This document shows, in pieces, positions 1,926 through 35,694 of a stretch of 42,179 nt of DNA. The DNA is from an uncultured Anaerolineaceae bacterium. Lineage in GTDB: Bacteria > Chloroflexota > Anaerolineae > Anaerolineales > Anaerolineaceae. The position numbers and the translations under genes were made by a program. Below the pieces are notes generated by a model. The model ran no database searches. It was not told the DNA's origin and saw nothing but the letters and a program-made list of their open reading frames with translations. The stretch is taken from contig CAZUZM010000003.1 of the NCBI GenBank assembly GCA_964624615.1, positions 3,241 to 45,419 on the forward strand. Direction: 5' to 3'. How positions within the stretch are numbered: position 1 is the first letter of the stretch; every line of letters begins with the position of its first letter.

Positions 1926-2864
1926 TTAGCCCTCAGGATTGATACGGAACTCATAAATCCCGTCGCGATACTCCCAAACATGGCTACAACCCGGACAAGT
2001 TTGGTCATGCTTCGTTTCCGGCAGGCTGGTTTGACAAATTGGGCAAGAGAAGAATGCGCCATCCTCGGGTTTTGGACTTGCACCAATGGCAAAGGATTGG
2101 GTAAACACACTGGGACTCAGCTGGACAAATGCACCTGTACACTGTAATGCAGAATCCAAACCCACCAAAACCTTGTGGTTAATGCCTCGTTTGAGCGCAC
2201 CAACGCGAAAATGAGAGACGGTTAGTTGCTTTTTGAGGTCAAACTGATTTTCCTTAAGCAAATTGCGCACCGTTCGCGGGTGGAAGTTGTAGTTAAGAGC
2301 AACAAACTCAACCTGCTCAGGGCTAAAGGGACTCCAGGACTGCTTCTTGAGCCAATATCGTCCGATCGCTTTTAGGTTTCGTTTGTTGGCATATTCCAAC
2401 ACGAACAGGGCATCTTCTGCCAAAACACGGCGCACATTCGCTAAAGCGCTAGCGGCATCAGAGAGATGATGCAGCGTGCGGATCATCGTCGCGCCATCAA
2501 AAAGGCCAGACACAAACGGTAATTTGTAAATATCCGCGGTGACATAGATATAACGATCAGAATCGCCCAGTCGTTCGCGCGCTTGCAAAAGTTGGGTGCG
2601 CGAATAGTCTAAAAGAACAATGCGTTCCCAGTGGTTGTAACGCGGCGTGTTGCGACCCGCACCAGCCCCAAGTTCAAGCAACAGCCTGCCATGCTCGGGC
2701 ATAATGCGCTTTAGCGCTACTTCTTCTGCGCCATCTTCATAACGTCGCTCGCCGGTATCCCAAAAAACCTCTTGGTATTTAGAACCTTCATACGAGCAAA
2801 CGGATGGCGTTTGATCCTCATCGGTTGGGTTAATAGAAGGGCTGATTTGATTTTCGTTGGTCAT
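1926..2864 (-). CDS. Class I SAM-dependent methyltransferase with C-terminal zinc-ribbon
   Basis: LLELGAGAGRNT is SAM-binding motif I. The C-terminus carries CPICQ...CPGC...YEF, a Trm112-like ribbon. I moved the start to the internal ATG at 2864 (MTNENQ), which has a TGAGG RBS. The longer track ORF runs over the SRP RNA. Confidence 0.8.
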   Translation of the reverse strand: MTNENQISPSINPTDEDQTPSVCSYEGSKYQEVFWDTGERRYEDGAEEVALKRIMPEHGRLLLELGAGAGRNTPRYNHWERIVLLDYSRTQLLQARERLGDSDRYIYVTADIYKLPFVSGLFDGATMIRTLHHLSDAASALANVRRVLAEDALFVLEYANKRNLKAIGRYWLKKQSWSPFSPEQVEFVALNYNFHPRTVRNLLKENQFDLKKQLTVSHFRVGALKRGINHKVLVGLDSALQCTGAFVQLSPSVFTQSFAIGASPKPEDGAFFSCPICQTSLPETKHDQTCPGCSHVWEYRDGIYEFRINPEG

Positions 2865-2885
2865 GCTTTGCCTCATTAAGAAAAT

Positions 2886-2988
2886 GTTGGGCAGGTTTAC
2901 CGGCAACACCCAGAGATACCTCCTTACCGCTGCTTCCTCTCGGACCTGACGGGGTTCGTAGGGCTCTGCCGCGCCGGTCCCGCCCAAC
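2886..2988 (-). ncRNA. ffs: Signal recognition particle RNA (small bacterial 4.5S type)
   Basis: The minus strand reads GUUGGGCGGG...CCCGUCAGGUCCGAGAGGAAGCAGCGGUAAGG...CCUGCCCAAC. GUCAGGUCC-GAGA-GGAAGCAGC matches the conserved domain IV with a GNRA tetraloop (E. coli has GUCAGGUCCGGAAGGAAGCAGC). The 5' and 3' ends pair (UUGGGCGGG / CCUGCCCAA), and AUUUUCUU follows the 3' end. Confidence 0.85.
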
Positions 2989-3039: not shown

Positions 3040-3564
3040 CTATGCCAGATTTTGGTCACAAATATCCCGAAATCCACAACTGCGACAACGCGCAGCTTGC
3101 TGATGGGAGCGCTGAGGGCTTTCATCACAGCCTTCAACCTGACGTAAGGCTAAGATGAGGTCGAGGAGTTTTGCTTTTTGAAGGTCATCGTAAGGCACTT
3201 CAAAACTTTTGTCTTCATAGCGAATGATGCCATGGCTTGGCTTTAAACCTTGCGTTTGTTCAATGAGGTAGCAGTACGCCAAAACCTGATAAACATGCGA
3301 ATCATAAGGTTGGATGGGTGCAGACACAGACTTGAAGTCAACCGGTACCAGGCTGCCATCGCGCTGACGAATGACATAATCGGGCTTGCCAACAAGGTTT
3401 AGATCAGCATCATACAAAGGTTTGGGGACGGCTTGTAGTTGATCGGTGTCGGCGTAAACCAAACGGCCAGACGGTAATCCGCTGGCTTGCTTCAAACGCC
3501 AGGCAATAATCAGCAAGAACACTGCCAAAACACAAAGAAGAAGTGCCACAGTCCAAGGGCTCAT
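3040..3564 (-). CDS. Cas4/RecB-like PD-(D/E)XK nuclease, C-terminal half with N-terminal TM helix
   Basis: From ATG 3564: MSPWTVALLLCVLAVFLLIIAW is a TM helix. The nuclease motifs are GKPDYV...VPVDFK (D / D-x-K) and QVLAYCY (QxxxY). The C-terminus has CRSCGFRDIC (C-x2-C-x5-C), typical of the Cas4 Fe-S cluster. The track start at 3729 overlaps the upstream ORF in another frame. Confidence 0.7.
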   Translation of the reverse strand: MSPWTVALLLCVLAVFLLIIAWRLKQASGLPSGRLVYADTDQLQAVPKPLYDADLNLVGKPDYVIRQRDGSLVPVDFKSVSAPIQPYDSHVYQVLAYCYLIEQTQGLKPSHGIIRYEDKSFEVPYDDLQKAKLLDLILALRQVEGCDESPQRSHQQAARCRSCGFRDICDQNLA

Positions 3565-3782
3565 CGTTTCACCCACAATAGTACTAATGCTATAGCAATC
3601 AAAATAAAAGCGACCAAAATAAGAAGTGGTACAAGTTTGACTTGTCGGGCATGACTTTGGTGTGCCTGGGTGCCGGCGTCCATTTGCTCTTGGTTTGAGG
3701 AGACTTCGCCTTGTAACTGGTACCACCAAGCACGTTCGCAGTATAAAAAAGACCCTAATTCTGACGCTTTTATCGTTCGCAT
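3561..3782 (-). CDS. Cas4-like N-terminal fragment (first cluster Cys) with C-terminal TM helix
   Basis: IKASELGSFLYCERAWWYQ resembles the Cas4/DUF83 N-terminal Cys motif. LVPLLILVAFILIAIALVLLWV is a TM helix. The TGA stop (3563-3561) overlaps the ATG (3564-3562) of the next ORF as ATGA. Confidence 0.6.
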   Translation of the reverse strand: MRTIKASELGSFLYCERAWWYQLQGEVSSNQEQMDAGTQAHQSHARQVKLVPLLILVAFILIAIALVLLWVKR

Positions 3783-3791
3783 AACCGTTTT

Positions 3792-3823
3792 CTATGATAA
3801 CATCTAATAAACTATTATCATAG
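3792..3823. promoter_or_regulatory. Palindrome filling the 49-bp divergent intergenic region
   Basis: CTATGATAA (3792-3800), 14 nt, TTATCATAG (3815-3823). The right arm abuts the AGGAG RBS of the gene at 3832. Confidence 0.4.
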
Positions 3824-3831
3824 GAGAAGAC

Positions 3832-4608
3832 ATGGCCTTAATAAATTGCCCTGAATGCGAACGAGAGATTTCTGATAGAGTCCTCGCATGTCCACATTGT
3901 GGCTTTCCGCTTAAAGAAGAGACTGGTTTTGTAGAAGACGTAAAGCCTCAAGATGTACAAATCACTGGTGTGAAAGTTGAAAAGCAGAAAGTTTTAACTT
4001 ACATACTTATCCCCTTACTAGTTATCGTCTTGATAGCTGGAGCCTACTTTATATTTAAAAGCGTAAAAGCTAAAAAAGAACAGATGGCTTATCAGGCAGC
4101 CTTTAATGAGTACATTGATAACACCAACTTGACATCATTAAAGATGCTAGTAGATGGAAGCATTGCGGAAGATATAACAGACTTATTGGCACGAGTGTGG
4201 AGGAATACTATTTATAAAGAAAATGACTCTACTACAGATAAATTCACAAAGTCCTCTGGCTATGGATTCAACGAGGATTTTAATACCTCAATTAGTTCTT
4301 TTTATGCTGACAGTGCGATTTCTAGAAAAGTAACTGACCTCAGGAATGGGCAAACAAGAGTTTCAGGGTTGATGAAAGACCTGCAAAATCCGCCGGAAGG
4401 TCTAGAAAAGGTTTATGACGCTATCATGGAACTAAACCTGGCCTATAAGCAGTTAACCAATTTAGCTATTTCCCCAACGGGAAGCTTAAATACCTATTCA
4501 GAGGCTAAAGATAAAGCTCAAAGCAATTTCCTAGACAAATTTGAGCGCCTTAAGAACCTAATACCTGAAAAATTCCCGGAACCAGCAAATGCTGATAAAA
4601 AACAATAG
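3832..4608 (+). CDS. Zinc-ribbon / single-pass membrane protein, unknown function
   Basis: N-terminal CPECE...CPHCG zinc ribbon, then the TM helix LTYILIPLLVIVLIAGAYFIF, then a ~180-aa extracytoplasmic domain I did not recognise. The gene is visibly more AT-rich than its neighbours. Confidence 0.7.
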   Translation: MALINCPECEREISDRVLACPHCGFPLKEETGFVEDVKPQDVQITGVKVEKQKVLTYILIPLLVIVLIAGAYFIFKSVKAKKEQMAYQAAFNEYIDNTNLTSLKMLVDGSIAEDITDLLARVWRNTIYKENDSTTDKFTKSSGYGFNEDFNTSISSFYADSAISRKVTDLRNGQTRVSGLMKDLQNPPEGLEKVYDAIMELNLAYKQLTNLAISPTGSLNTYSEAKDKAQSNFLDKFERLKNLIPEKFPEPANADKKQ

Positions 4609-4639: not shown

Positions 4640-4668
4640 AAAAACAGCTCGGTAAACCGAGCTGTTTC
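4640..4668. terminator. Bidirectional rho-independent terminator
   Basis: AAAAA-CAGCTCGG-TAAA-CCGAGCTG-TTT, between convergent genes. Confidence 0.75.
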
Positions 4669-4686: not shown

Positions 4687-5343
4687 TTACTTGTGATGAG
4701 CCGTGAGAAAGCCGTCCAGCTTATCCGAAAGTTCGTCCAGCTGTTGGGTCAGGACTTGTTGGCGATAGGAAGTTGTGATATCGGCACGTGTGCGCTCGAT
4801 GATGCCCCGCGCTAAGTCGGTTCGTCTTCTCAGACCGTCTGTAACCGCATCGGGATAATCCATGGTCACCAACTGGGTAAAAATTTCGTCCATGCTAAAC
4901 AAGAGTCTTTCCACTTCATCCGTATAGCCAGTACGCAAAATGTCCATGCAGCGACGGCGCATTTCGCCCAGTGTCTCGGTAAGGCCATTAAGCCACGCTG
5001 GCAGCTCCACACCCAGGTCCGCAGGGCTTGGGATGGGGTTGTCATAGATAATCGCAGCGGTCAATTTGGCTTCGCAATATTCTTTGAGGGCGTCTTGGGT
5101 GTAGCCAGTGTAATAAAGGTCTGGGTGATTGGGTTTAAGCGTATGGATAATACAGTCAACAATCACCTTTCCCGCTTCAAGTTCTTCCTCTGCGACCTTA
5201 AGCTCGTTGCGATGGATGGCGCGAATAGCTAAAGACGCACGGCGAATAACTTCACGCGCGTTCTTTAATGCCTGATCCCGCAGCTCCGTTTTCTCGTTGA
5301 ACTCTTCACGGATCTGCTCACAAATTTTTTCTAAATTTTGCAT
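4687..5343 (-). CDS. Translin/TRAX-family (C3PO-like) protein
   Basis: KEYCEA resembles the TRAX catalytic QEYVEA (ExxE) motif, and LGEMRRRC resembles the translin GELMR motif. I set the start at ATG 5343 (MQNLEK), which has a GGAGG RBS 1 nt after the upstream stop. The longer track ORF overlaps the upstream gene. Confidence 0.65.
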   Translation of the reverse strand: MQNLEKICEQIREEFNEKTELRDQALKNAREVIRRASLAIRAIHRNELKVAEEELEAGKVIVDCIIHTLKPNHPDLYYTGYTQDALKEYCEAKLTAAIIYDNPIPSPADLGVELPAWLNGLTETLGEMRRRCMDILRTGYTDEVERLLFSMDEIFTQLVTMDYPDAVTDGLRRRTDLARGIIERTRADITTSYRQQVLTQQLDELSDKLDGFLTAHHK

Positions 5344-5344
5344 T

Positions 5345-5662
5345 TTATCCCTCCTCTGGCGGTTCCTTTGGTCCACTTGTCTTAAAAAGTTGGTCTGCAA
5401 GGCTGTGTCCTTGTGGGATTTTAATTTCACCAAAGTTGCTTTCAAAACGGCGCAAATTTTCGTTCAAAGCCTGAACGAGCAACTTGGCACCTAAGGGAGA
5501 AAAGACAAGTCTGGTATTAATCTTTTGTTCTTTAATACCCGGCATGACACTCGCAAAATCGAGCACAAACTCTTGCGGCGTGTGTGAGATGTAAGACATA
5601 TTCACATATCGCGCGCTTAAATCTTCTGGCACACTAATGGTTATCTTCTTAATTTCCGCCAT
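5345..5662 (-). CDS. DUF3467-family small protein
   Basis: YVNMSYISHTPQEFVLDF...RLVFSPLGAKLLVQALNENLRRFESNFGEI matches my memory of the DUF3467 pattern. It starts 9 nt after ssb. Confidence 0.6.
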   Translation of the reverse strand: MAEIKKITISVPEDLSARYVNMSYISHTPQEFVLDFASVMPGIKEQKINTRLVFSPLGAKLLVQALNENLRRFESNFGEIKIPQGHSLADQLFKTSGPKEPPEEG

Positions 5663-5671
5663 GAGAAAACC

Positions 5672-6073
5672 TTAGAATGGGATGTCGTCGTCCATAGAAT
5701 CGTCTATGCCGTCAGCATCCGCGCCACCACCAACGCCTTCTGAGCGAGGCGACATAAAGCGCACTGACTCAGCAGTGATCTCATAAGAACTGCCCCAAGA
5801 TCCATCATTTCGTTGATAAACGCGAGGTCCACCGGTTTGAGAATCTGGGTACAAGCGTCCCTCAACTAAAACCTTAGATCCTTTACGAAGGTATTGATTG
5901 CAGCTTTCTGCTTGTTTACCCCAAACGGAAACGCGAAACCAAGTAGTTTCATCGACATCTTTATACTTTCGGCTGGTCGCTACGCTAAAGCTGGTTACAG
6001 GGTTGCCATCGGGTGAAAAACGCATTTCTGGGTCGCGACCCAAATTGCCGATAATGATTATTTTTTGATACAT
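5672..6073 (-). CDS. ssb: Single-stranded DNA-binding protein
   Basis: MYQKIIIIGNLGRDPEMRF...TWFRVSVWGKQAE is an OB fold, and the acidic tail ends in DDDIPF. Confidence 0.95.
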   Translation of the reverse strand: MYQKIIIIGNLGRDPEMRFSPDGNPVTSFSVATSRKYKDVDETTWFRVSVWGKQAESCNQYLRKGSKVLVEGRLYPDSQTGGPRVYQRNDGSWGSSYEITAESVRFMSPRSEGVGGGADADGIDDSMDDDIPF

Positions 6074-6353: not shown

Positions 6354-7076
6354 ATGGGCACACCTTATCTTTCAATTATCATTCCCGCGCATAACGAATC
6401 CAAACGCCTTGGGCAAACCTTGATGCTTGTCCAAGAATATCTCAAAAACAAAGATTTTGAGTCCGAACTCATCATTGTAGAAAATGCCAGCAGCGACCAA
6501 ACCGCACAAATCGTGCGTGATTGGCAAGCGCGCATGCCCAACCTGCACCTCATCAGCCTCAAAGAACCTGGCAAAGGGGGCGCTGTGAAAGTTGGTATGC
6601 TCTCGGCGCGTGGTCAATTCCGCTTTATGGCGGATGCGGATCTTTCAATGCCCATCGAAGAGTTGGATAAGTTTTTACCACCCAAACAAGATGCAGAAGT
6701 TGCCATTGGATCACGTGAAGCACCCGGCGCACGTCGGTTTGACGAGCCAGAATACCGCCATCTGATTGGTCGGGTTTTCAACCTTTTGGTCAAACTCATT
6801 GCTTTGCCCAAGGTTGAAGATTCGCAGTGCGGCTTCAAAGGCTTTAGTGCCGAAGCCGCCGACCGCATTTTTCCCTTGCAGCAGCAAACCGGCTGGAGCT
6901 TTGATGTTGAGGTCTTGGTTATCGCACGCGAGTTGGGCTACGCCATCAGCGAAGTACCCATCGACTGGTATTACCAAAAAGGCTCACGCATGAATGTCCT
7001 CAAAGCCAGTTGGCGCATGTTCCGTGACCTATGGCGCATTCGCCGTAACCGTAAACAGGGTCTTTATCGTGCCTAA
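6354..7076 (+). CDS. Family 2 glycosyltransferase (dolichyl/polyprenyl-phosphate glycosyltransferase-like)
   Basis: LSIIIPAHNE, MADADLS (DxD) and GFKGF motifs. Confidence 0.85.
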   Translation: MGTPYLSIIIPAHNESKRLGQTLMLVQEYLKNKDFESELIIVENASSDQTAQIVRDWQARMPNLHLISLKEPGKGGAVKVGMLSARGQFRFMADADLSMPIEELDKFLPPKQDAEVAIGSREAPGARRFDEPEYRHLIGRVFNLLVKLIALPKVEDSQCGFKGFSAEAADRIFPLQQQTGWSFDVEVLVIARELGYAISEVPIDWYYQKGSRMNVLKASWRMFRDLWRIRRNRKQGLYRA

Positions 7077-7731
7077 ACGCTTCGATCCCGCCCTGCTTCC
7101 ACCCTTTCCGACCCTGGAATTTGAAAGCGCGCTATGGCAGGAGGGAAATCGGATCGTCGCAGGCGTGGATGAAGCCGGCAGAGGTGCCCTGGCAGGACCG
7201 CTTTATGCCGCGGCCATCGTTTTACCACCCGATGAACCTGACATAAGTCAAGTTCTTTTTGACGTGCGCGACTCCAAACAACTCAAACCTTTTGACCGTG
7301 AGCGCTTGGCACCCATCATCACCGAGGTCGCCTTGGACTACGCCATTGCCTGGCTCGAAGCGGATGAAATTGACGCTTTAGGCATGGCACAAGCCGGGCG
7401 ATTGGTCTTTCAAAAGGCTTTGTCAGGACTAAAAATAAAGCCTGATCATGTTTTAGTAGATTATTTCACCATCCCAGCACTTGAAATAGGTCAAACCAGT
7501 TTGGTGAAAGGCGATCAGCGCTCCTTGAGCATCGCCTGCGCATCTATTTTGGCAAAACAAGCCCGTGACGCGCGCATGGTTGAAGAAGCCAAACGCCATC
7601 CCGGCTATTTTCTCGCCGAAAACAAAGGCTATGGCAGCGCTGAACACATCCAAGCCATTCAGACTTTAGGACTGGATGCCATTCACCGCAAAAGTTTTTG
7701 CGAAGGCTTGATGCAACTTTCATTATTTTAG
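7069..7731 (+). CDS. rnhB: Ribonuclease HII
   Basis: AGVDEAGRGALAGPLYAAA and ASILAK motifs. I chose the GTG start at 7069 (VPKRF), which overlaps the GT2 stop by 8 nt. The track ATG at 6994 lies deep inside the upstream gene. Confidence 0.9.
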   Translation: MPKRFDPALLPPFPTLEFESALWQEGNRIVAGVDEAGRGALAGPLYAAAIVLPPDEPDISQVLFDVRDSKQLKPFDRERLAPIITEVALDYAIAWLEADEIDALGMAQAGRLVFQKALSGLKIKPDHVLVDYFTIPALEIGQTSLVKGDQRSLSIACASILAKQARDARMVEEAKRHPGYFLAENKGYGSAEHIQAIQTLGLDAIHRKSFCEGLMQLSLF

Positions 7732-14267: not shown

Positions 14268-15443
14268 ATGCCCATCAATTACGCTCACATTCATAATAAT
14301 CTCGATCATTTTGCGGATTTAACCCAAAAAAAGCTGGAAGAGCAACGTCAGGCGCTTGAAAAAGTGTTGTCGCAAATCGAAACAGCAGCGAGTGTACAGG
14401 CTGAGGTCGAAGCAGCCGTCCAGCGTGCGGAACAACAAGCTGGCAACCTCTATACCGCCAAGCCCAGCCACGAAGCCATGCTGGCAAGCTTCTCCTTGCC
14501 CGAATGCCCCAAATATTACACGCTCATCGCCGCCGATGGTTCGCAAATCAACCCCAGCCGCCACCGTGCCTTGCAGTTTTGCTTGATCAATGTCGGCTTG
14601 ATTCACGTGGAACATGGTTCTGGCGAGACACCCGTTCAGCAGGTCTTTAGCAAAATCCTCGACCAAGACGAACTCTATACCAACGAAGGGACGCTCATCG
14701 GCGAAGAAGAAGTCGCCCTACACCGTGACCTCTTGGAACGCATCTATTTGATGGAAGCTTTACCAGTAGCTATTGAAAAACCAACCATCACCCTCACCGA
14801 CGGGCCTTTGGAAGTCTTTACCGGACCAACCCTGAGTGGTGAACGCCGGCAAAAGGTACAAGAACAAAACCAGACCATCGAGCAACGCATGCAAGCGCTG
14901 GGCGTCATCAACGCTGGTTACATCGATAAACCAGGCGCGGAAATGATTAACCGCATGCTTGACCTTTTTGCCCAAAGTCAAAGTGCTTCCGACCGCCCTT
15001 ACGAAGCCAAAAAGCGCGCCAATAAAGGTGTCAGTGACCTGGCTATTTTCCAAAACCGTCTGGCACCAGGTGAACGGTCAGCATTATTTTATGTTATTTC
15101 CAAGAACGAGGCCAAACAAGAAGCCACAAAGGTCTGCTTTTTCTTACTCAATGTCAGCAACGATCCCGATGAACCCTGGCTGGCGCGGGTAGAATGCCCC
15201 GCCTGGCTTGCTGAAGACCCGGATACAATAGACATCCTGCACGCCGCGCTTTACCGGGATGCCCAGGTGCTCGACGCCATGCCCTATCCCTATGTGCTCC
15301 ATCGCGCGCACGAATTGGCGGTGGTCAATGTCGCCGAACATGACGAGGTTGAAGAAATGCTTATGTCCCGTCTGGACCATGACCAATTACCATCGGGTAG
15401 CATGTCGCACAAACAAAGTCTAAAATCACTCTCAAAGAGGTGA
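14268..15443 (+). CDS. NurA-like 5'-3' nuclease with N-terminal coiled-coil extension
   Basis: IAADGSQ (catalytic Asp), LTDGPL, GYIDKPGA and the C-terminal PYPYVLHRAHELA resemble NurA-domain motifs. Confidence 0.75.
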   Translation: MPINYAHIHNNLDHFADLTQKKLEEQRQALEKVLSQIETAASVQAEVEAAVQRAEQQAGNLYTAKPSHEAMLASFSLPECPKYYTLIAADGSQINPSRHRALQFCLINVGLIHVEHGSGETPVQQVFSKILDQDELYTNEGTLIGEEEVALHRDLLERIYLMEALPVAIEKPTITLTDGPLEVFTGPTLSGERRQKVQEQNQTIEQRMQALGVINAGYIDKPGAEMINRMLDLFAQSQSASDRPYEAKKRANKGVSDLAIFQNRLAPGERSALFYVISKNEAKQEATKVCFFLLNVSNDPDEPWLARVECPAWLAEDPDTIDILHAALYRDAQVLDAMPYPYVLHRAHELAVVNVAEHDEVEEMLMSRLDHDQLPSGSMSHKQSLKSLSKR

Positions 15444-15445
15444 GC

Positions 15446-16057
15446 ATGAACGAAGTCAAAACCATCCCAATAGGCAAACTCTTGCGCGCCGACAACCGCC
15501 AGTTTGTCGCCGGCTGTCGTGTTAAAGAGCTGGAAACGCCCGCGTTAGGCGGGCTGGTCAAAGCCAAATTGCAAGACCAAAGTGAGGTTTATGGCATCAT
15601 CACACGCATCAGCATCAGTGATGATGGGCTGGTGCGTCAATTGGCATCGGGCACGAGCATTCCGCCCGAATACACCGCCGACAACCGTCACAATCGCAAC
15701 CTGCCGGTGGAGATTGAAGTGCTTACATTGGGTTATGCCCGTGATGGACAGATTTTTCACCAACTTCCGCCCCGCCCACCCCTGAGTTTGGACGTGCTTT
15801 ACCTCTGTGATGATGATGACTTGGTCGCTTTTACCAAACATGGCAACAATCAAGCCTATCTGCGGCACATCCTGCGCCTGCAAGACATGCCCTTGGAAGA
15901 GGTTTTAGTGAGTCATCTCAAAAAAACAAAACAAGCCCACGATGCCCACGGCAACCCAGCTTGGTACACCCAGGCTTGCGAGCGCTTGATTATCTTATTG
16001 CGCGAAGATTACCCACGGTTGACCGCCGTGCTGGATGCCCTTTCAGCGATGGACTGA
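15446..16057 (+). CDS. Hypothetical protein, N-terminus resembles a HerA HAS-barrel
   Basis: ATG 15446 follows an AAGAGGTGA RBS, and the alternative GTG at 15440 overlaps the nurA stop. PIGKLLRADNRQFVAGCRV...GGLVKAKL...VYGIITRISIS parallels PIGFVSGG..LQVRLMV...GAFVVMDS...FYGLVTDLQLG in the downstream HerA. No Walker motifs are present. Confidence 0.55.
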   Translation: MNEVKTIPIGKLLRADNRQFVAGCRVKELETPALGGLVKAKLQDQSEVYGIITRISISDDGLVRQLASGTSIPPEYTADNRHNRNLPVEIEVLTLGYARDGQIFHQLPPRPPLSLDVLYLCDDDDLVAFTKHGNNQAYLRHILRLQDMPLEEVLVSHLKKTKQAHDAHGNPAWYTQACERLIILLREDYPRLTAVLDALSAMD

Positions 16058-16064
16058 GGTAAAA

Positions 16065-17801
16065 ATGACAGACACAAACCAAAACACCGCCTTGACTCAA
16101 ACCATGCAAAACCAACCCATCGGCTTCGTTTCCGGCGGTGGGCTTGAAGCCAACCTACAAGTTCGCCTGATGGTGCCCGCCCAAGAGGTGCAAAGCGGCG
16201 CCTTTGTGGTGATGGACAGTGGCAACTGGCGCTTTTATGGCCTGGTCACCGACCTGCAACTCGGTGCGGTAGACTTGCAATACGCCAATCAGCTCAACAT
16301 CAAGCGTTTTGACCCCGCCCTGTCTGCGTTGCTGAATCAACAGACCCTGTTCACCAACCTGGCTGTCATGCCAGCACTGATGTTGGAACGCGGTCCCGAG
16401 CTTGATTCACCGGACTATAGCGCCTGGCGTGCTTCGCTAACCAAGGAACCCAACCCCATGCCGGTCAAAACCGTACCTGACCATCACACCCCGGTGCGTT
16501 TAGCCGACAAAGCCGACATTGCAGAAATTTTCGGCGAAGAAAGCAAAACCGTTTTCCGCGTGGGCGAAACCCGCGAACAGGGTCATGGCGTTTGCCTGGA
16601 CCTCGAAAAGTTCGTCCAGCGCAGCTCTGGCATCTTTGGCACCACCGGCTCAGGTAAATCTTTCCTGGCACGCATGATTTTGGCAGGCCTCATCCACGCC
16701 GATAAAGCCTCCACGCTCATTTTTGACATGCACAACGAATATGGCATCGACTCAACCAGCTCTGATTCTGGTGCGGCTGTGCCTGGGCTAAAAGGCAAAT
16801 TTGATTCGAAAGTCCGTTTGGTTGGTCTCGGCGCGGATAGCAGTTTTCACAGCCGCCAACCTGATTTCACCCTTGAAATCGCCCACAGTGACATCATGCC
16901 CGAGGATATTCTGCTGCTCGCTGAGACACTCAACCTGACTGATGCCAGTAATGTAACCCTGGATGCACTTTACAGTAAATTTGGCGATAAATGGTTTACG
17001 GCTTTCAAAGACATGAAAATAGGCGCTGGCGCTTATGAAAATGATGAAAACGGCAAGCAAGTCCCCACCGATGGCAGCGTTGCCGCCTGGGCGAACGAAG
17101 CCGGCGTGCATGTCAAATCTGCCGAAGCCGTCCGCCGAAAGCTAGAAGAGTTGATGAACCGCAAGTATCTGGTCGCTGAACCCGCCCGAAACGCCTTGGA
17201 TGACGTCATCAACAATTTGCAAAACGGACGTCATGTGGTGCTTTCTTTTGGACATTATGAGAAAGATATCGACTACTTGATGGTTACTAATCTGATTACC
17301 CGGAAAATACGTGACACCTGGGAAAAAGCCACAAACAAGTTCCACAGCAAAGCCAAAGACGCCGCGGAACCTAGACCTTTGGTCATCGCCGTGGAAGAAG
17401 CTCACAAACTACTCAATCGTGAGATGGCTAACCAAACCATTTTTAGCACCATCGCGCGCGAAATGCGCAAATACTATGTAACGCTTTTGATTATCGACCA
17501 ACGCCCCTCACAAATCTATGATGAGGTCATGTCGCAGCTTGGCACACGCATCTCAGCCTCACTGGGTGACGAAGATGATATCAGTGCGGTACTTTCTGGT
17601 CTACCGGGACGTTCGAGCTTGCGTGGCATGCTCGCTAAGCTACAGCCGAAAGAAGAAGTGCTCATGCTGGGTTGGGGTGTGCCTATGCCCATTCCCATCC
17701 GCTCACGCCGCTATGACCAGGTCTTCTGGCAAGAACTTTTGGGTAAAGACGACAAAAAAGTCACCTCCGCCGCGGACGCCAAGAGAAACCTGGGCTTTTA
17801 A
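16065..17801 (+). CDS. HerA/FtsK-superfamily hexameric ATPase (DUF87-type)
   Basis: Walker A GIFGTTGSGKSF, Walker B VIAVEEAHKLL, and LLIIDQRPSQI. The N-terminus is HAS-barrel-like. ATG 16065 follows a GAGG RBS right after the upstream stop. Confidence 0.85.
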   Translation: MTDTNQNTALTQTMQNQPIGFVSGGGLEANLQVRLMVPAQEVQSGAFVVMDSGNWRFYGLVTDLQLGAVDLQYANQLNIKRFDPALSALLNQQTLFTNLAVMPALMLERGPELDSPDYSAWRASLTKEPNPMPVKTVPDHHTPVRLADKADIAEIFGEESKTVFRVGETREQGHGVCLDLEKFVQRSSGIFGTTGSGKSFLARMILAGLIHADKASTLIFDMHNEYGIDSTSSDSGAAVPGLKGKFDSKVRLVGLGADSSFHSRQPDFTLEIAHSDIMPEDILLLAETLNLTDASNVTLDALYSKFGDKWFTAFKDMKIGAGAYENDENGKQVPTDGSVAAWANEAGVHVKSAEAVRRKLEELMNRKYLVAEPARNALDDVINNLQNGRHVVLSFGHYEKDIDYLMVTNLITRKIRDTWEKATNKFHSKAKDAAEPRPLVIAVEEAHKLLNREMANQTIFSTIAREMRKYYVTLLIIDQRPSQIYDEVMSQLGTRISASLGDEDDISAVLSGLPGRSSLRGMLAKLQPKEEVLMLGWGVPMPIPIRSRRYDQVFWQELLGKDDKKVTSAADAKRNLGF

Positions 17802-17803
17802 CG

Positions 17804-20386
17804 ATGATTCCCAAGAAACTAACCCTCAGTGGCTTCACCTCTTATCGCAATCCGGTAACGCTCGACTTTTCAGCATTCAGCATTGCCTGCGTTTCAGGAT
17901 CAAACGGCTCGGGCAAGTCCTCGATTTTGGATGGCATGACCTTCGCCCTGTATGGCAAAGCACGAAAATCAGATGATTCCCTCATCAACTCTGCCAGCGA
18001 TAAAGCCGAAGTAACCCTCGACTTTGAATATGAAGGACAGACCTACCGCGTGACGCGTTCCCTAACCCGAGGGAAAAGCAGCACGCTTGATTTTTACATC
18101 TACAACCCCGAACCGGAAGAAGAAGGCAGGCACTGGAAGGTGCTCACCGAACACACCATCGGAAACACCAACGCCAAAATTGAGCGTACCTTACGCCTGG
18201 ACTACGAAACCTTCGTCAACGCCTCGTTCTTTTTGCAAGGTAAAGCTGATTCTTTTGCCACCCAAAGACCGGCTGACCGCAAGCGCATCCTTGCCAGTAT
18301 TTTAGGGCTCAATCAATGGGACTTATACCTTAAAGCCAGCAAAGAGCGCAGCACCCAGGTCCGCCTGGAACTCGAAAGGATTGACGCGCGCCTTGCTGAG
18401 ATTCAAAGCGAACTCGATCAGGAAGAGGAACGCAAGGCACGACTGGAAAGCCTGGAAGATAAACTCAAACTCGCCAAGGCCGAGACCAGTGTTTTACAAG
18501 CCCAATTGGATACCGAGCGTGCTAAACAGGAGAAGCTCAAAGAAAAACGCCAGTATGTAGCGCTCCTAAAGCAAAATTTTGACCGTGCCGAAAGCAATCA
18601 CGCCGACACCCTGGCGCGTCGTGACGAACGCCAGGCACAACTGAACAGCTTTAACGAGGTGTTGGCAAACGCTGATCAAACGGAAAAAGACTATCAGACC
18701 TGGCAAGAAGCCCGCAAAGCACTCCAAGCCTTCGACCAGGTTTATGAGCAATTCAAGCCCATGGATGGCAAGCGGCAGGACCTGCTCAGGCAAATCGAAC
18801 TCAAAAAACAATCTCTACAACAAGCTCTCCAGCACCTATTGGACGAAAGAAGAAAGCTTGAGGATGTTCTCAACCGCAGCTTGGACGATCAAAAACAATT
18901 GGATGCCCTGCAGCCAAAAGTTGACTCCTTACAAAAGGAAATCGCCCTTGGGGAAACCCTCCAGGAAGAGATCAACCAGCTCATTGGATTGAAATCCACG
19001 TTGGAAAGCGAGAACAAGAGCCTGCGCCAAAAGATGAATGACCTCAAAGAACGCCAGCTCAAGATTGGCGCGGTGGAAGGCGCGCAATGCCCCTTCTGTG
19101 ACCAAGCGCTTTCAGCGGAGCATCGCCAAAACCTGATTGACAAAATCCAAACTGAAGGTACCAGCCTTGGCAATCAGTTCCGCGAAAACCAAGATAAAAC
19201 CGAAAATGCTGAGCAAGCCCTCAAAGTCAAGAAGCAAGCTTTGCTCAACCGCAATGAGCACCAAAGCACTTTGCAGCATTTGTTAAGGGAAAAAGACCGG
19301 CTGACACAGCTGTTGAACCAAGTCGAAACGCAGAAAAAAACTTTTGAAGCCGAGCGCGCTCCAAAAATCGCTGAATTAGAAGCCCTACTAGAGACTGAAG
19401 CCTTCATGCATGAAGAACGCGCGGCGATTCAAAACATCGAAAAAGAAATCGCCACCCTGGGCTATGACGCCAACGCCCACGCCAGCATCCGTCAAGAAGA
19501 AGCCCGAGCCCGCCTCGCCGAAGCGGCTTATCACGACCTGGGCAAAGCGCGCAGTAGCGTGGAACTGATCAAACAGAACCTCAGCGAACTCGAAACCAGT
19601 CTGATCGGCTCTGAAAAAGAGCGCCAGAGTCAGGAAACAGCCTTTCACCAGGCTGCTGCCAGCCTGGCAGAAGAAGAAGCCCAACTTCCAGACCTTTATC
19701 AACTTGAACGCGATTACATGCTCCAAAAAGAAAAAGAAGCTGCTTTGTTACGCGAACATGGTGGCGCAAGTCAACTGGTCAAAAACCTCGACACCCAACG
19801 CATGCGACAACTAAGTCTCCGTGAAGATCAAGAAGCCCTGATGCAAAATCTGGGACAACTGCGCAGCCTGGAAACCGCCTTTGGCAAGGACGGCGTGCCC
19901 GCGATGCTCATCGAACAAGCGCTGCCCGAACTGCAGGAACAAGCCAATGAGGTTTTGCACAAACTAAGCGACCACACCATGAGCGTCACTTTTAGCACCC
20001 AACGGGAGTACAAAGACAAAAAGCGCGAGGACAAGCGTGAGACTTTGGATATTCTCATCAGCGATGGGTCTTCTACCCGCGATTACGAAACATTTTCAGG
20101 CGGCGAAGCTTTTCGAGTCAATTTTGCCATCCGCTTAGCCCTTTCACGGGTGCTCAGCAGGCGTGCTGGTGCAAAGATGCAGACCTTGGTTATTGACGAA
20201 GGTTTCGGCAACCAAGACCGCCACGGTCGGCAGCTGTTGATCGAAGCCATCAACATGATTCAAGATGACTTTGAGAAGATTTTGGTGATTACCCATATTG
20301 AAGAACTCAAGGACCAATTCCCTAATCGTGTTGAGGTCAGCAAAGATGCTATGGGTTCCTCAACCCTGGATTTAGTCTTGGGATAA
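17804..20386 (+). CDS. Rad50/SbcC-family SMC-like ATPase with central zinc hook
   Basis: Walker A GSNGSGKSS. A long heptad-rich middle region carries CPFC (codons 429-432 of 860) at its exact midpoint. Signature motif FSGGE, Walker B LVIDEGFG, and ITHIEEL. Confidence 0.85.
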   Translation: MIPKKLTLSGFTSYRNPVTLDFSAFSIACVSGSNGSGKSSILDGMTFALYGKARKSDDSLINSASDKAEVTLDFEYEGQTYRVTRSLTRGKSSTLDFYIYNPEPEEEGRHWKVLTEHTIGNTNAKIERTLRLDYETFVNASFFLQGKADSFATQRPADRKRILASILGLNQWDLYLKASKERSTQVRLELERIDARLAEIQSELDQEEERKARLESLEDKLKLAKAETSVLQAQLDTERAKQEKLKEKRQYVALLKQNFDRAESNHADTLARRDERQAQLNSFNEVLANADQTEKDYQTWQEARKALQAFDQVYEQFKPMDGKRQDLLRQIELKKQSLQQALQHLLDERRKLEDVLNRSLDDQKQLDALQPKVDSLQKEIALGETLQEEINQLIGLKSTLESENKSLRQKMNDLKERQLKIGAVEGAQCPFCDQALSAEHRQNLIDKIQTEGTSLGNQFRENQDKTENAEQALKVKKQALLNRNEHQSTLQHLLREKDRLTQLLNQVETQKKTFEAERAPKIAELEALLETEAFMHEERAAIQNIEKEIATLGYDANAHASIRQEEARARLAEAAYHDLGKARSSVELIKQNLSELETSLIGSEKERQSQETAFHQAAASLAEEEAQLPDLYQLERDYMLQKEKEAALLREHGGASQLVKNLDTQRMRQLSLREDQEALMQNLGQLRSLETAFGKDGVPAMLIEQALPELQEQANEVLHKLSDHTMSVTFSTQREYKDKKREDKRETLDILISDGSSTRDYETFSGGEAFRVNFAIRLALSRVLSRRAGAKMQTLVIDEGFGNQDRHGRQLLIEAINMIQDDFEKILVITHIEELKDQFPNRVEVSKDAMGSSTLDLVLG

Positions 20387-22390: not shown

Positions 22391-24883
22391 CTATAACAAG
22401 TCCGGTGGATTGACCTCCACCCGCCAGTCGCGCAAGTTAAGCCCTTCCAGGACCACATTCGGATTGGGACCCCGTAAAACGATTTGCCAGCGGTATTGCC
22501 CTGCCCATTTATGGAAATAACAAGGTGCGGGACCCATAAGGTAAGTGCGTTTCAAAGCCAACGTCTTGATATTCTCATTCAAAACGTTCGCCATCGCTTC
22601 AGCTTCCTCTTGAGCCTTGCTGTCAAAGCGATGTTGATAGACCAAACGCGTCAAAAAACTGAAGGGCGGGTAGCCTAACTCACGTCGAAACGCCAATTCC
22701 TGATGATAAAAACCTTCAAAGTTGTGATCCGCGGCAAATTGGATGACGCTATTTTCGGGTTGATAACTTTGCATGATAACCCGACCACCCAACGGGCTGC
22801 GTCCCGCCCGTCCGGCAACTTGCGTCAACACCTGAAAAACCCTTTCACTGGCACGATAATCGGGCAAGTTCAAGCCCAGTTCCGCCAAAATAATGCCCAC
22901 CAGGGTCACTTTAGGGAAGTCCAACCCTTTGGCAAGCATCTGGGTGCCAATCAAAACATCCGCACGATGGGCACTGAAGTGCGACAGAATCAGGTCGTGG
23001 TCACCCTTGCCTCGTGTGCTTTCAGCATCCCACCGCAATAACCTTGCCGTTGGAAACGCTTTTTGTACCATATCTTCCAATTGCTCGGTGCCCATGCCCA
23101 GTTGGCGTATCTGGCTACCACCACATTGGGGACAGGTTTTGGGCAACTGTCGGGTGTAGCCACATTGGTGGCACAACAAGCCCTGGCGTGAGCGGTGGTA
23201 GGTCAGCGGCGCTTCATCCCGTGGACAGCGTATGACGTGTCCACAAGTGCGGCAAAAGACATAGGTGGTACTGCCTTTACGATTGAGAAAGAGGATGGCT
23301 TGTTGGCCGGCATCAAGCGTTTCTCGCAGCGCTTGTTTGAGCGCGCGCGAAAGGGGTTGGCGATTGCCAGCGATCAGCTCTTGGCGCATATCAACAATAT
23401 GAACGGGTGGCATGACTGGCGCGTCAGAGGAAGGCTTACCCTCGTCAACAGAATGGGTATCCTTGTGCTCCAAATGTGCTGGCACGCGTCGTGGCAGACG
23501 CAAAAGCTGCCAGTCGCCCTTTTCAGCTTTGTAGTATTGAGTCACACGTGGGGTAGCACTACCTAGAAGAAGCGTAGCATCACAAATGCGGGCATAAGCT
23601 TCAGCCGTTTCAACGGCATGATAGAAGGGTAATCGCTCAGTTTCGTCATAAGAGTCGTTGTCACACTCATCAATGACAATCAGCCCTAAGCGTTCAAGAG
23701 GCATGAACAACGCCGAGCGTGAGCCGATGATGATTTTCAAATCACCTTGCCGTGCTCTTCGCCAGGTGTCGTAGCGCTCACCGTCAGAAAGTTTTGAATG
23801 ATATATACCAACTTGGTTGGGAAAACGCGCCATGAAACGGCGCACGGTTTGGGGTGTCATTGCAATTTCGGGCACCAAAACCAAGGCTTGCTTGCCCTTG
23901 TTCAGTTGCTCTTGCACCGCGCGCATATAGATTTCTGTTTTTCCAGAACTGGTTACGCCATGCAACAAAAAGGGTTTTGCCTTGGAGTTATCTAACTGTG
24001 GCAAAATGGATTCCCAAACCTTCTGCTGATCAGCGGTAAGTATCGGTGGTTTTGCCTCGGGCAGCTCGTAATCTGCCAGAGGATTCCGCCAAACCTCGGT
24101 TTCATTGAAATGAATCAAGCCCATTTCTGCCAAGAGGGTCAAGTCCGCATAGTTTGCACCGGTTTGGGCATAAATCCAAGAGAAATCCATGGGCATCGCG
24201 TCACTCGCCAGCCGTTCCAAAACCGCCATTCGCCTAACGCGCGTGTTTTCCTGGCTGCCCAAAGTGTCAGAGTCCAGCCTCGCAATCGACTCCACCGGCA
24301 CTGACAGGGACGCCGTGCGCACTGTTTTGCTTGTGACACTCGGCGGCGGCAAGACGTTTTGGCTGCTAATCAATCCTTGCTGCCGCAAAGCACGCATCGC
24401 GCGACGCCAATCGACCTTGGGCATGGCATGGCTTATCTGAGCGCCACGCAAAGTACCGCGCCTTCTCAAAAGCTGAACCAAGCGTTTTTGAGCAGGCGAA
24501 AGCCCAGCCAAAAGAACATCGTTAATTTCAATGTCTCGTAAACGATAAAGAACATCCGCCCGGCGCGAAAGACCGATTGGAATCATCAAGCCCACACATG
24601 CACCCAAGGGCGCCAGGGTATGCACCGAAAGCCACTGCGCCAGCGCCAGTTGTTGATCGGTGAGCACCTGCTCTTCAGAAAGAGGCTCAATAATATCCTT
24701 GATATCTTCAAAGTCCGGGGCCGCGTTCTCTCCTAAAACCACCCCTTGTGCCAACCGCGAACCAAACGGCACCAAAACCAAACTGCCCGGCTTTATGACA
24801 GCTTCGAATTCAGGCGGCACACGATAGGTATAACTTTGATCAATTTGGCTTATGTTGATACTGACATCAACGAAAGGGCTCAC
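22391..24883 (-). CDS. priA: Primosomal replication-restart helicase PriA
   Basis: LLHGVTSSGKTE (Walker A), VIDECD, the Cys-rich insert CRTCGH...CHQCG...CPQCGG, and AGRAGR. GTG start. Confidence 0.93.
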   Translation of the reverse strand: MSPFVDVSINISQIDQSYTYRVPPEFEAVIKPGSLVLVPFGSRLAQGVVLGENAAPDFEDIKDIIEPLSEEQVLTDQQLALAQWLSVHTLAPLGACVGLMIPIGLSRRADVLYRLRDIEINDVLLAGLSPAQKRLVQLLRRRGTLRGAQISHAMPKVDWRRAMRALRQQGLISSQNVLPPPSVTSKTVRTASLSVPVESIARLDSDTLGSQENTRVRRMAVLERLASDAMPMDFSWIYAQTGANYADLTLLAEMGLIHFNETEVWRNPLADYELPEAKPPILTADQQKVWESILPQLDNSKAKPFLLHGVTSSGKTEIYMRAVQEQLNKGKQALVLVPEIAMTPQTVRRFMARFPNQVGIYHSKLSDGERYDTWRRARQGDLKIIIGSRSALFMPLERLGLIVIDECDNDSYDETERLPFYHAVETAEAYARICDATLLLGSATPRVTQYYKAEKGDWQLLRLPRRVPAHLEHKDTHSVDEGKPSSDAPVMPPVHIVDMRQELIAGNRQPLSRALKQALRETLDAGQQAILFLNRKGSTTYVFCRTCGHVIRCPRDEAPLTYHRSRQGLLCHQCGYTRQLPKTCPQCGGSQIRQLGMGTEQLEDMVQKAFPTARLLRWDAESTRGKGDHDLILSHFSAHRADVLIGTQMLAKGLDFPKVTLVGIILAELGLNLPDYRASERVFQVLTQVAGRAGRSPLGGRVIMQSYQPENSVIQFAADHNFEGFYHQELAFRRELGYPPFSFLTRLVYQHRFDSKAQEEAEAMANVLNENIKTLALKRTYLMGPAPCYFHKWAGQYRWQIVLRGPNPNVVLEGLNLRDWRVEVNPPDLL

Positions 24884-35154: not shown

Positions 35155-35157
35155 GGC

Positions 35158-35694
35158 TTAATTGCGGGCTCCTTTAGATTGCGCATATGCGCTGGCAGCA
35201 AGCAGTCCAGCATAAACAATATACCAGATGATGCTTCCAGCACCAGCCAGAATATTTCCCGATTTAATCATCAGCAGGAGTTGGCGGATCAACAAGGGGC
35301 TGGCGCCAACAAGGGCGCCAAACAAAACGCCAAGATCAATCCGTTTGCCACGCCGTCGTTTGAGCACCAGCCGGTTGACCCGATAAATGAGCAAACCAAG
35401 CCCGGTTGCCACCAAAATGATAATGAAACCCAAGGGCGCCACCAACCAACTTCCGGCAAAAGCAATCACTGCGGCAACAAAAAAAGCAATGATAGGGTCT
35501 GTGGCATGGGAGCTATCAAAAACCCTTTGCTGGCTCTTCACGCAATTCTTGCAGCGATAGCCGGTTGGGGTAAGCACTGCCGTCTGGGGTGTAATTGGGA
35601 TATTACAGCGATTACAGCGCAAAACTGGCGCATCATCTTGCATCAGTTCATTGAAATCGCTGGGAATGTTTGGGGTATTTTCTGAATTAGTCAT
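35158..35694 (-). CDS. Zinc-ribbon membrane protein, unknown function
   Basis: CNRCN...CKNC ribbon followed by about four hydrophobic helices. It overlaps the nadK stop by 8 nt and ends 3 nt before recN. Confidence 0.6.
   Translation of the reverse strand: MTNSENTPNIPSDFNELMQDDAPVLRCNRCNIPITPQTAVLTPTGYRCKNCVKSQQRVFDSSHATDPIIAFFVAAVIAFAGSWLVAPLGFIIILVATGLGLLIYRVNRLVLKRRRGKRIDLGVLFGALVGASPLLIRQLLLMIKSGNILAGAGSIIWYIVYAGLLAASAYAQSKGARN

Follow-up and report, generated by a model that had tools for sequence, protein, structure and literature searches.

When a Cas4-like nuclease gene is interrupted in the middle of its coding sequence, is it a broken or misread gene, or have two genes divided one enzyme between them? 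This question is raised by a 42,179-nucleotide stretch of DNA (in the following, the window) from an uncultured Anaerolineaceae bacterium (GenBank assembly GCA_964624615.1, contig CAZUZM010000003.1), in which two open reading frames (ORFs), cas4N (ORF1) and cas4C (ORF2), follow each other on the minus strand between positions 3,782 and 3,040 and meet in a four-nucleotide ATGA overlap. An earlier, sequence-only reading had described the two as a Cas4-like iron-sulfur nuclease divided over two membrane-anchored polypeptides, and had named a genuine two-subunit membrane nuclease, a recent frameshift and a sequencing indel as possible explanations. The analysis reported here favors the first of these: with a probability of about 80%, the products of cas4N and cas4C are the two subunits of a single membrane-tethered, non-CRISPR nuclease of the solo-Cas4 family (RecB-like, PD-(D/E)XK), derived from a single-chain ancestor by gene fission.

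The elements of that description were recovered exactly (see the table for all coordinates). The 73-aa ORF with the Cas4 N-terminal motif, the first cluster cysteine and a terminal transmembrane (TM) helix was found with precisely the coordinates and sequence given, the ATG of ORF2 does overlap the TGA of ORF1, and ORF2 opens with a second TM helix, followed by the PD-(D/E)XK core and the three remaining cysteines. The ligands of the predicted 4Fe-4S cluster are thereby divided 1+3 between the chains, with C15 on ORF1 and C160, C163 and C169 on ORF2. In the automatic ORF list, ORF2 had been extended to a TTG at 3729; its real start is placed at the ATG at 3564, as homologues of 168-188 aa align from residue 1 and open with this TM helix as well. 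An ATGA overlap is a classic geometry for translational coupling. The position of a weak promoter-like site, which ends 12 nt upstream of the cas4N start, suggests that the leader is short or absent.

Among the Chloroflexota genomes examined, the two-gene state is conserved and of ancient origin. Three independent assemblies, made from different sequencing runs (SRR8925788, SRR8925790, ERR13731100), agree in all 743 nt of the region, and a relative with 85% nucleotide identity (110 differences in 743 nt) carries the same junction. Searching with ORF2 yielded proteins of 169-176 aa from metagenome-assembled genomes (MAGs) of Chloroflexota, which form about 90 clusters and reach down to 40% identity. 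With ORF1 as query, 24 clusters were retrieved; their members have 72-86 aa, and none is fused. Relatives occur in at least 591 species-representative genomes, of which the best 80 are all Chloroflexota, mostly Anaerolineae, and the subfamily amounts to at least 331 clusters (50% identity) at E ≤ 1e-30. In each of 85 analysable loci, which include 76 species-representative genomes and reach down to ~37-40% identity, a separate N ORF (72-106 aa) and a separate C ORF (168-188 aa) are present; the comparison of fused and split orthologues that had been proposed earlier returned no fused gene in these loci. A Pyrinomonadaceae (Acidobacteriota) genome is likewise split, with ATGA. Both ORFs are under purifying selection, with ratios of nonsynonymous to synonymous substitution rates (dN/dS) against the 85%-identical relative of 0.09 for cas4N (0.05 for its cytoplasmic part) and 0.15 for cas4C.

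The junction between the two genes is variable. The halves overlap by 4 nt (ATGA or GTGA) in 22 loci and by 1 nt in six, while spacers of +1 to +55 nt are found in about 33 loci and gaps of 140-1400 nt in 23, and adjacent pairs make use of all three relative frames (28, 15 and 9 cases). In about 21 Anaerolineales species, a same-strand gene for a protein of ~210 aa is located between the N and C genes and nowhere else in the examined loci. This protein, 47-100% identical among species, gives a weak HEAT_2 match, appears all-helical by eye and could be an accessory subunit of the nuclease; L049 holds two tandem copies of its gene and L032 a decayed remnant. Two genomes (L033 and L036) carry, besides the HEAT-like gene, a gene for a potassium channel of the TMEM175 family between the two halves.

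ORF2 matches positions 58-178 of the Cas4 model TIGR00372 (E 3.5e-16; 59.5 bits versus an equivalog cut-off of 65) and exceeds the cut-offs of PF01930 (40.6 bits, cut-off 22.7) and PF12705 (43.2 bits). ORF1 matches positions 3-47 of the 180 in TIGR00372 (E 1.2e-4), PADLOC Cas4 (E 1.3e-5) and Pfam Exo5 (E 3.4e-4), and its scores of 15.3 and 21.9 bits stay under every curated family cut-off because the match spans just 45 model positions. The two ORFs cover complementary parts of the Cas4 models, with ~70 residues between the matched parts. All motifs of the family are present, namely GxxD, (D/E)xK and QxxxY (in cas4C G59-K-P-D62, D76-F-K78 and Q93..Y97, invariant in homologues), together with one N-terminal cysteine and a C-terminal CX2CX5C, the latter being invariant in 44 C-fragment homologues and in fused forms. 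Residues invariant in split and fused proteins are C15, W19, G37 and H41 of the N part as well as D39, G59, P61, D62, Y63, P74, K78, Q93, Y97, R152, H154, C160, C163 and C169 of the C part. A family trait that the pair lacks is the single soluble polypeptide, as it consists of two ORFs with one TM helix each. Against PADLOC-DB, the pair gave only Cas4, DruK and Aga_Cas4-like nuclease-domain matches, which reflect the common nuclease fold. In agreement with the earlier observation, the window ORFs scanned and ~90 related loci yielded no cas genes, and the 42 kb no CRISPR-like repeats. By motifs, profile and fold, the pair is a solo-Cas4-family enzyme and not a CRISPR-associated Cas4. Database annotations read 'CRISPR-associated protein Cas4' for the large chain and mostly 'hypothetical protein' for the small one.

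For a structural view, AlphaFold2 was run on an artificial concatenation of the two window proteins, using an alignment of fused, N-only and C-only homologues. The resulting model has a mean predicted local distance difference test score (pLDDT) of 90.7 and a predicted template-modelling score of 0.84, with residues 1-40 at pLDDT ~89-95. It shows a single helix from 31 to 71, meaning that the histidine-bearing helix runs on into TM helix 1, a loop at 72-75, and a helix at 76-101 (TM helix 2) leading into the beta-sheet core. The natural chain break falls between residues 73 and 74, inside this four-residue loop, as had been proposed when the break was placed within a TM hairpin. In a Foldseek search of the PDB, the type I-C Cas4 chain 8d3l_I ranked first (template-modelling score 0.59 by query and 0.66 by target, probability 1.00), followed by AdnAB (6ppr), SSO0001, Cas4-Cas1, ACE1 (9iab), Dna2 (5eax) and Exo5 (7lwa). 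A profile built from split and fused sequences (alignment A2) matches the Cas4 chains 8d3l, 4r5q, 4ic1 and 7mi4, and positions 6-46 of the N fragment correspond to residues 11-51 of 8d3l, with the cysteine and the histidine of 'G..lH' aligned. A single-sequence phmmer search of the PDB with the concatenated protein gave only a marginal match to 9iab (E 0.55). In SSO0001, the metal is bound by His62, Asp99, Glu113 and a backbone carbonyl (PMC13621843, PMC12501428); by position, His41 of cas4N is likely the equivalent of His62 and thus a putative metal ligand.

Both hydrophobic segments are regarded as TM helices on the basis of hydropathy, charge bias and the AlphaFold2 helices. Each comprises ~19-23 residues without charges, and over 76 homologous pairs the minimum Kyte-Doolittle means are 2.20 for TM helix 1 and 1.77 for TM helix 2. 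In the same pairs, lysine and arginine residues average 2.25 before and 0.62 after TM helix 1, versus 0.09 before and 2.93 after TM helix 2. This pattern follows the positive-inside rule, so that both soluble parts are predicted to be cytoplasmic. Accordingly, cas4N is most likely tail-anchored (N-in, C-out) and cas4C signal-anchored (N-out, C-in), which would put the chain break on the outer side of the cytoplasmic membrane, where the tails past the helices are short (mean 0-4 residues, maximum 13). Hydropathy and charge bias hence agree with membrane spanning, on which the sequence-only reading had made its proposal depend.

Single-chain relatives exist among more distant matches of 262-335 aa, some of ~500-560 aa, which are mainly archaeal. 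They contain, in order, the N motif (SAGDVGRYxYCxLNWK...G...H), two, four or eight hydrophobic helices, the same core and CX2CX5C. The retrieved proteins comprise 269 one-TM C fragments without N motif, 40 fused forms with two TM helices, about 12 with four and four to five with eight; the even numbers fit an N-in/C-in topology. Expansion of the hairpin proceeds by a module of ~100 aa, in which an amphipathic stretch precedes two TM helices, e.g. 'ILWFSLIAIVIGVNGVAII...LWVIVAALFFY'. Archaeal proteins of 543-559 aa (P0245, P0266, P0289, P0294) and 322-334 aa (P0232, P0292, P0296) have the TM hairpin multiplied to four or eight helices. Insertion point, invariant residues (C, W, G, H; D, K, Q, Y; CX2CX5C) and solo context are common to the archaeal fused homologues and the pair; the former, in contrast, are one polypeptide, and their neighbors are RNase HI, CarS or GatE instead of ssb, TRAX or recN. 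The surroundings of fused forms are archaeal, as seen from a CDP-archaeol synthase-like gene, a gene for an archaeal pilin and GatE. In the cultured methanogen Methanofollis formosanus, a fused protein (P0318) is annotated as 'CRISPR-associated protein Cas4'; its gene overlaps that of RNase HI by 4 nt and has no cas gene near it. One further fused cluster, which is bacterial (P0171), shows a Chloroflexi-type motif with a long inter-TM loop and adjoins an RseP-like protease gene.

These features can be combined into a model. The ancestor would have been a single chain in which a TM helical hairpin separated the Cys/His helices of the N-terminal part from the catalytic beta-sheet core, a form that would survive fused in archaea. 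Gene fission within the extracytoplasmic loop of the hairpin would then have produced a tail-anchored 8-kDa subunit with Cys15 and His41 and a signal-anchored 19-kDa subunit with the D..D-x-K core and three cysteines. Both chains would rejoin through the pair of TM helices and an intersubunit [4Fe-4S] cluster held by Cys15 of the small and Cys160, Cys163 and Cys169 of the large chain, giving a composite active site to which the small chain would contribute His41 and the large chain D62, D76 and K78. In this genome, the ATGA overlap may provide coupled, roughly equimolar translation, although such coupling would not be universal. Cas4, AddB, Dna2 and Exo5 are nucleases and serve as a model for metal-dependent action on single-stranded DNA or DNA ends. 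By this analogy, the pair should be a metal-dependent nuclease with the same kind of substrate, and it may process ends of single- or double-stranded DNA on the inner side of the membrane, as part of recombinational repair or of metabolism linked to replication.

A possible function is indicated by the genomic surroundings. In relatives, a conserved cluster comprises ssb, a DUF3467 gene, a gene for a 213-218-aa protein, cas4N, cas4C, nadK, a gene for a B-box Zn-finger protein and recN. Among 76 species loci, nadK/recN follow directly downstream in 57 and ssb/DUF3467/TRAX precede the pair in 35, with the TRAX-like gene directly upstream of cas4N in these; both groups are present in 18 loci and neither in one. 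Linkage of N to C is hence much tighter than linkage of the pair to either neighboring cluster. In the window, the protein of 213-218 aa, with 218 aa here, was recognized as TRAX-like through a PDB sequence search; Pfam gave no match. The window has kept the ssb side of the cluster, and nadK and recN are found 30 kb away; as they adjoin the pair in most relatives, the ancestral cluster must have been broken in this lineage. The three neighboring genes scanned against PADLOC gave no defence-system match. Overall, the neighborhood is one of housekeeping DNA metabolism and not a defence island. A role in repair or recombination, favored by synteny with ssb and recN, is a tentative proposal to which somewhat less than an even chance is given.

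Several other explanations of the split have to be considered. That it stems from a sequencing or assembly error or from a recent, pseudogenizing frameshift has a practically negligible probability, despite the fact that 1-nt indels can create ATGA overlaps and that plainly frameshifted N fragments in L026 and L074 attest to errors or pseudogenes in MAGs: three independent assemblies without a single difference exclude the indel put forward earlier, and the recent frameshift is excluded by the occurrence of two genes in 85 of 85 relatives with differing junctions and sometimes an intervening gene, in addition to purifying selection on both ORFs and to homologous C proteins which all open with TM helix 2. 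One polypeptide would result after all from programmed frameshifting or stop-codon bypass, and the overlap of the ORFs, the -1 frame of C relative to N and the fused archaeal homologues could be taken in its favor. With junctions of -4, -1 and +1 to +55 nt in all three frames, a 21-nt spacer in L007 and an entire gene between the halves in ~21 species, conservation of a slippery site is, however, impossible, and recoding is accordingly considered extremely improbable. Identical assemblies, conserved split, variable junctions and purifying selection thus exclude indel, recent frameshift and recoding, and of the three alternatives named at the outset it is the genuine two-subunit membrane nuclease that is supported. 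Alternatively, the small ORF might be a dispensable remnant, the 174-aa chain being functional alone (with a three-cysteine cluster or none) or acting as a non-catalytic DNA binder. This fits the family matches of ORF1 below curated cut-offs, the three loci in which no N fragment was detected, and a cluster-less mutant of the Methanosarcina mazei solo-Cas4 reported as active (cited in PMC13621843). Yet the N fragment accompanies the C fragment in 85 loci, the low dN/dS of cas4N is lowest in its cytoplasmic part, its four invariant residues persist in split and fused forms, and AlphaFold2 packs residues 1-40 with high pLDDT, so that a mere remnant appears improbable.

Two further rivals concern the membrane and the function. 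Instead of spanning the membrane, the hydrophobic helices could form a coiled-coil or oligomerization interface of a soluble Cas4 oligomer. A toroid is reported for SSO0001 and a high-order oligomer for the M. mazei enzyme (PMC12501428), and the TM call rests on hydropathy, charge bias and AlphaFold2 helices. Uncharged stretches of ~19-23 residues with means of 2.8-3.4 (homologue minima 1.8-2.2), asymmetric lysine/arginine flanks, even TM counts (2, 4, 8) in fused forms and short tails at the split, as expected for a periplasmic turn, nevertheless make this interface very improbable. The main functional rival to repair accepts the same two-subunit architecture, with the pair serving in defence or surveillance of DNA entry by degrading phage, plasmid or transforming DNA at the membrane. 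The anchor would set the active site at a distance of ~10 residues from the inner leaflet, plasmid DNA is attacked by some of the other solo-Cas4 proteins while some work together with Argonaute, e.g. ACE1 (PMC12501428), and REase-ARP and DUF234-ATPase genes are inserted beside the pair in L001. On the other hand, vertical and near-universal conservation in Anaerolineae with fixed ssb/TRAX/nadK/recN surroundings is unlike defence islands, purifying selection is moderate, no partner defence genes were found among the neighbors scanned, and no arms-race signature was found for solo-cas4 (Hudaiberdiev et al. 2017, PMC5704561). A defensive role is regarded as rather unlikely.

The two-subunit, membrane-tethered nuclease has to be weighed against a number of points as well. 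Taken alone, cas4N yields only sub-threshold family matches, and a profile limited to 50 positions of the N fragment, which is too short, had no significant match in the PDB; the assignment of His41 therefore relies on the alignment of A2 with 8d3l and on family model coordinates. Association of the chains and a common cluster are predictions, and the AlphaFold2 model used an artificial concatenation. The N fragment was undetected by hidden Markov model (HMM) within 5 kb in three of 80 loci (L067, L081 and L091, the last two from Thermoflexales MAGs), in which the C gene is normal and starts with its TM helix; the C chain may hence function by itself in some cases, or the N gene may lie elsewhere in the genome or have been lost. 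In L043, where the HMM likewise found no N fragment, the contig end explains the absence. Moreover, an opposite-strand gene and a terminator-like hairpin part the pair from the ssb operon in the window, the argument for repair is one of synteny only, with nadK and recN at a distance of 30 kb here, and nothing accounts for membrane attachment of a repair nuclease.

How does the pair relate to known systems? Monophyletic, vertically evolving solo-Cas4 proteins are present in many Chloroflexi (Hudaiberdiev et al. 2017, PMC5704561). Distribution of the top 80 relatives, all Chloroflexota, out of at least 591 genomes and conserved synteny would be compatible with membership of the pair in this clade; in the text of the paper, neither 'transmembrane' nor 'split' occurs. 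With solo-Cas4 (COG1468/PF01930/TIGR00372), the pair has in common the RecB-like motifs, C...CX2CX5C, the Cas4 fold, the lack of cas neighbors and vertical inheritance, but it differs by its two genes, a TM hairpin insert of ~70 residues and the predicted distribution of cluster and active site over both chains. The M. mazei solo-Cas4 (Rentz et al. 2025, PMC12501428) and ACE1 (9iab, 9iac) are also Cas4-family members outside CRISPR adaptation, Mn2+-dependent and equipped with an Fe-S cluster. In contrast to the pair, they are soluble, single-chain and oligomeric (the word 'membrane' does not occur in the text of PMC12501428); furthermore, ACE1 is tied to a prokaryotic Argonaute, which is absent from the pair's locus. 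Full-text literature searches returned no earlier description of a transmembrane or split Cas4, and for DUF3467 and bacterial translin no prior description turned up. In AddB/AdnAB, Dna2 and Exo5, a 4Fe-4S staple connects the C-terminal CX2CX5C of the RecB-like nuclease domain with a segment at the N terminus, and the part these proteins play in processing DNA ends and in repair is the model for the function proposed for the pair. Their staple, however, is internal to a single chain of a large soluble helicase-nuclease, whereas that of the pair would bridge two chains that are both small and anchored in the membrane, with no gene for a helicase partner nearby. The pair thus differs from every characterized Cas4 in being membrane-integral and two-chained, presumably with a composite cluster and active site.

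Solo-Cas4 proteins are widespread. A large membrane subfamily has now been defined, and being integral to the membrane, as predicted, it must act on DNA at the cell envelope, which constrains the cellular role that solo-Cas4 can have. By natural fission, the Fe-S 'staple' cysteine and the catalytic histidine, as predicted, have come to reside on a 73-aa tail-anchored peptide and the rest on another chain, making the structural role of the Cas4/AddB/Dna2-type cluster testable by asking whether the cluster holds the chains together. In addition, thousands of 'hypothetical' ORFs of 70-85 aa are flagged as enzyme subunits, and the enzyme becomes linked to ssb, a bacterial TRAX homologue and recN. 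A more far-reaching version would be an obligate heterodimeric, membrane-embedded Fe-S nuclease in which the [4Fe-4S] cluster acts as intermolecular staple whose assembly or oxidation gates activity, and which represents the bacterial, fissioned branch of an undescribed integral-membrane Cas4 family (2-8 TM helices, archaea) and part of an ancient ssb-DUF3467-TRAX-Cas4TM-nadK-recN repair module in Chloroflexota; taken as a whole, this version is speculative and rather doubtful.

Table 1 Features of the cas4N/cas4C locus, of the remaining window and of related loci (positions in related loci are those of the respective locus)
Feature	Position	Strand	Remarks
cas4N (ORF1)	3561..3782	-	73 aa, small subunit; full sequence MRTIKASELGSFLYCERAWWYQLQGEVSSNQEQMDAGTQAHQSHARQVKLVPLLILVAFILIAIALVLLWVKR; contains SFLYCERAWWY, ends ...LLWVKR and stop
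N-terminal part of cas4N, residues 1-49		-	Cas4 N-terminal helices, predicted cytoplasmic; invariant C15 (codon 3740-3738), W19, G37, H41 (codon 3662-3660)
TM helix 1 (ORF1 residues ~50-72)	3567..3635	-	Kyte-Doolittle 19-residue mean 3.39 (residues 53-71)
ATGA start/stop overlap	3561..3564	-	ORF2 ATG 3564-3562 overlapping ORF1 TGA 3563-3561
cas4C (ORF2)	3040..3564	-	174 aa, large subunit; contains GKPDYV, PVDFK, QVLAYCY, CRSCGFRDIC
TM helix 2 (ORF2 residues ~4-22)	3499..3555	-	Kyte-Doolittle 19-residue mean 2.82 (residues 6-24)
Motifs II/III, GKPD(62) and PVD(76)FK(78)	3331..3390	-	align with catalytic region of Cas4 chains
CX2CX5C (C160, C163, C169 of ORF2)	3058..3087	-	three of four predicted 4Fe-4S ligands
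Promoter-like site (ATGATA, 16 nt, TG-TATCAT)	3794..3821	-	consensus match only, weak
Class I S-adenosylmethionine methyltransferase gene	1926-2987	-	C-terminal CxxC...CxxC Zn-ribbon; directly downstream of cas4C
Zn-ribbon gene	3832-4608	+	258 aa, one TM helix and helical domain; between TRAX-like gene and cas4N
Terminator-like hairpin	4641-4668		bidirectional, 12-bp stem; after Zn-ribbon gene
TRAX/translin-like gene	4687..5343	-	218 aa; AfTRAX 3zc1 E 1.8e-19, Nanoarchaeum C3PO NEQ131 E 4e-8 (PDB sequence search)
DUF3467 gene	5345..5662	-	105 aa; PF11950 E 2.7e-17; conserved operon partner
ssb	5672..6073	-	133 aa, acidic DDDIPF tail; PF00436 E 1.9e-29; first gene of conserved cluster
GT2 glycosyltransferase ORF	6354-7076	+	longest ORF
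RNase HII ORF	6994-7731	+	longest ORF
NurA gene	14268-15443	+	
205-aa ORF	15440-16057	+	
HerA gene	16035-17801	+	
Rad50/SbcC-like ATPase gene	17804-20386	+	
PriA gene	22391-24883	-	
nadK, gene for 178-aa protein, recN	33421-36565	-	292 aa (nadK), 577 aa (recN); 30 kb from cas4 pair
~210-aa intervening gene, examples	L039 337-969; L040 4318-4953; L041 4323-4970		~18 further loci
TMEM175-family channel gene	L033 4226-4966; L036 4229-4966		between cas4N and cas4C
C-fragment genes without nearby N	L067 4920-5459; L081 4905-5456; L091 4609-5133		
DUF234/ATPase_2 gene	L001 4375-5766		between TRAX-like gene and cas4N
REase-ARP/PDDEXK_13 nuclease gene	L001 6591-7511		after cas4C

Among the other genes next to the pair, the Zn-ribbon TM protein was considered as a partner of cas4 and rejected, its gene lying on the opposite strand and being present solely in the closest relatives (L094, L095). 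The methyltransferase gene keeps its position after cas4C in eight of 76 species and is followed in the window by an ArsR/DUF5937 regulator and a major facilitator superfamily transporter. In L001, from one Anaerolineaceae lineage, a transposase and an N6/N4 methyltransferase are located near the inserted DUF234/ATPase_2 and REase-ARP/PDDEXK_13 genes; these surroundings are a local hotspot of mobile or defence-like insertions. Further away in the window, NurA, an unassigned 205-aa ORF, HerA and the Rad50/SbcC-like ATPase belong to an archaeal-type double-strand-break repair cluster (14268-20386), after which comes PriA, with no Mre11/SbcD identified among the window ORFs scanned. Finally, the longest ORFs of the GT2 glycosyltransferase and RNase HII overlap by 83 nt; since the RNase HII domain begins at residue 56, its true start is probably downstream.

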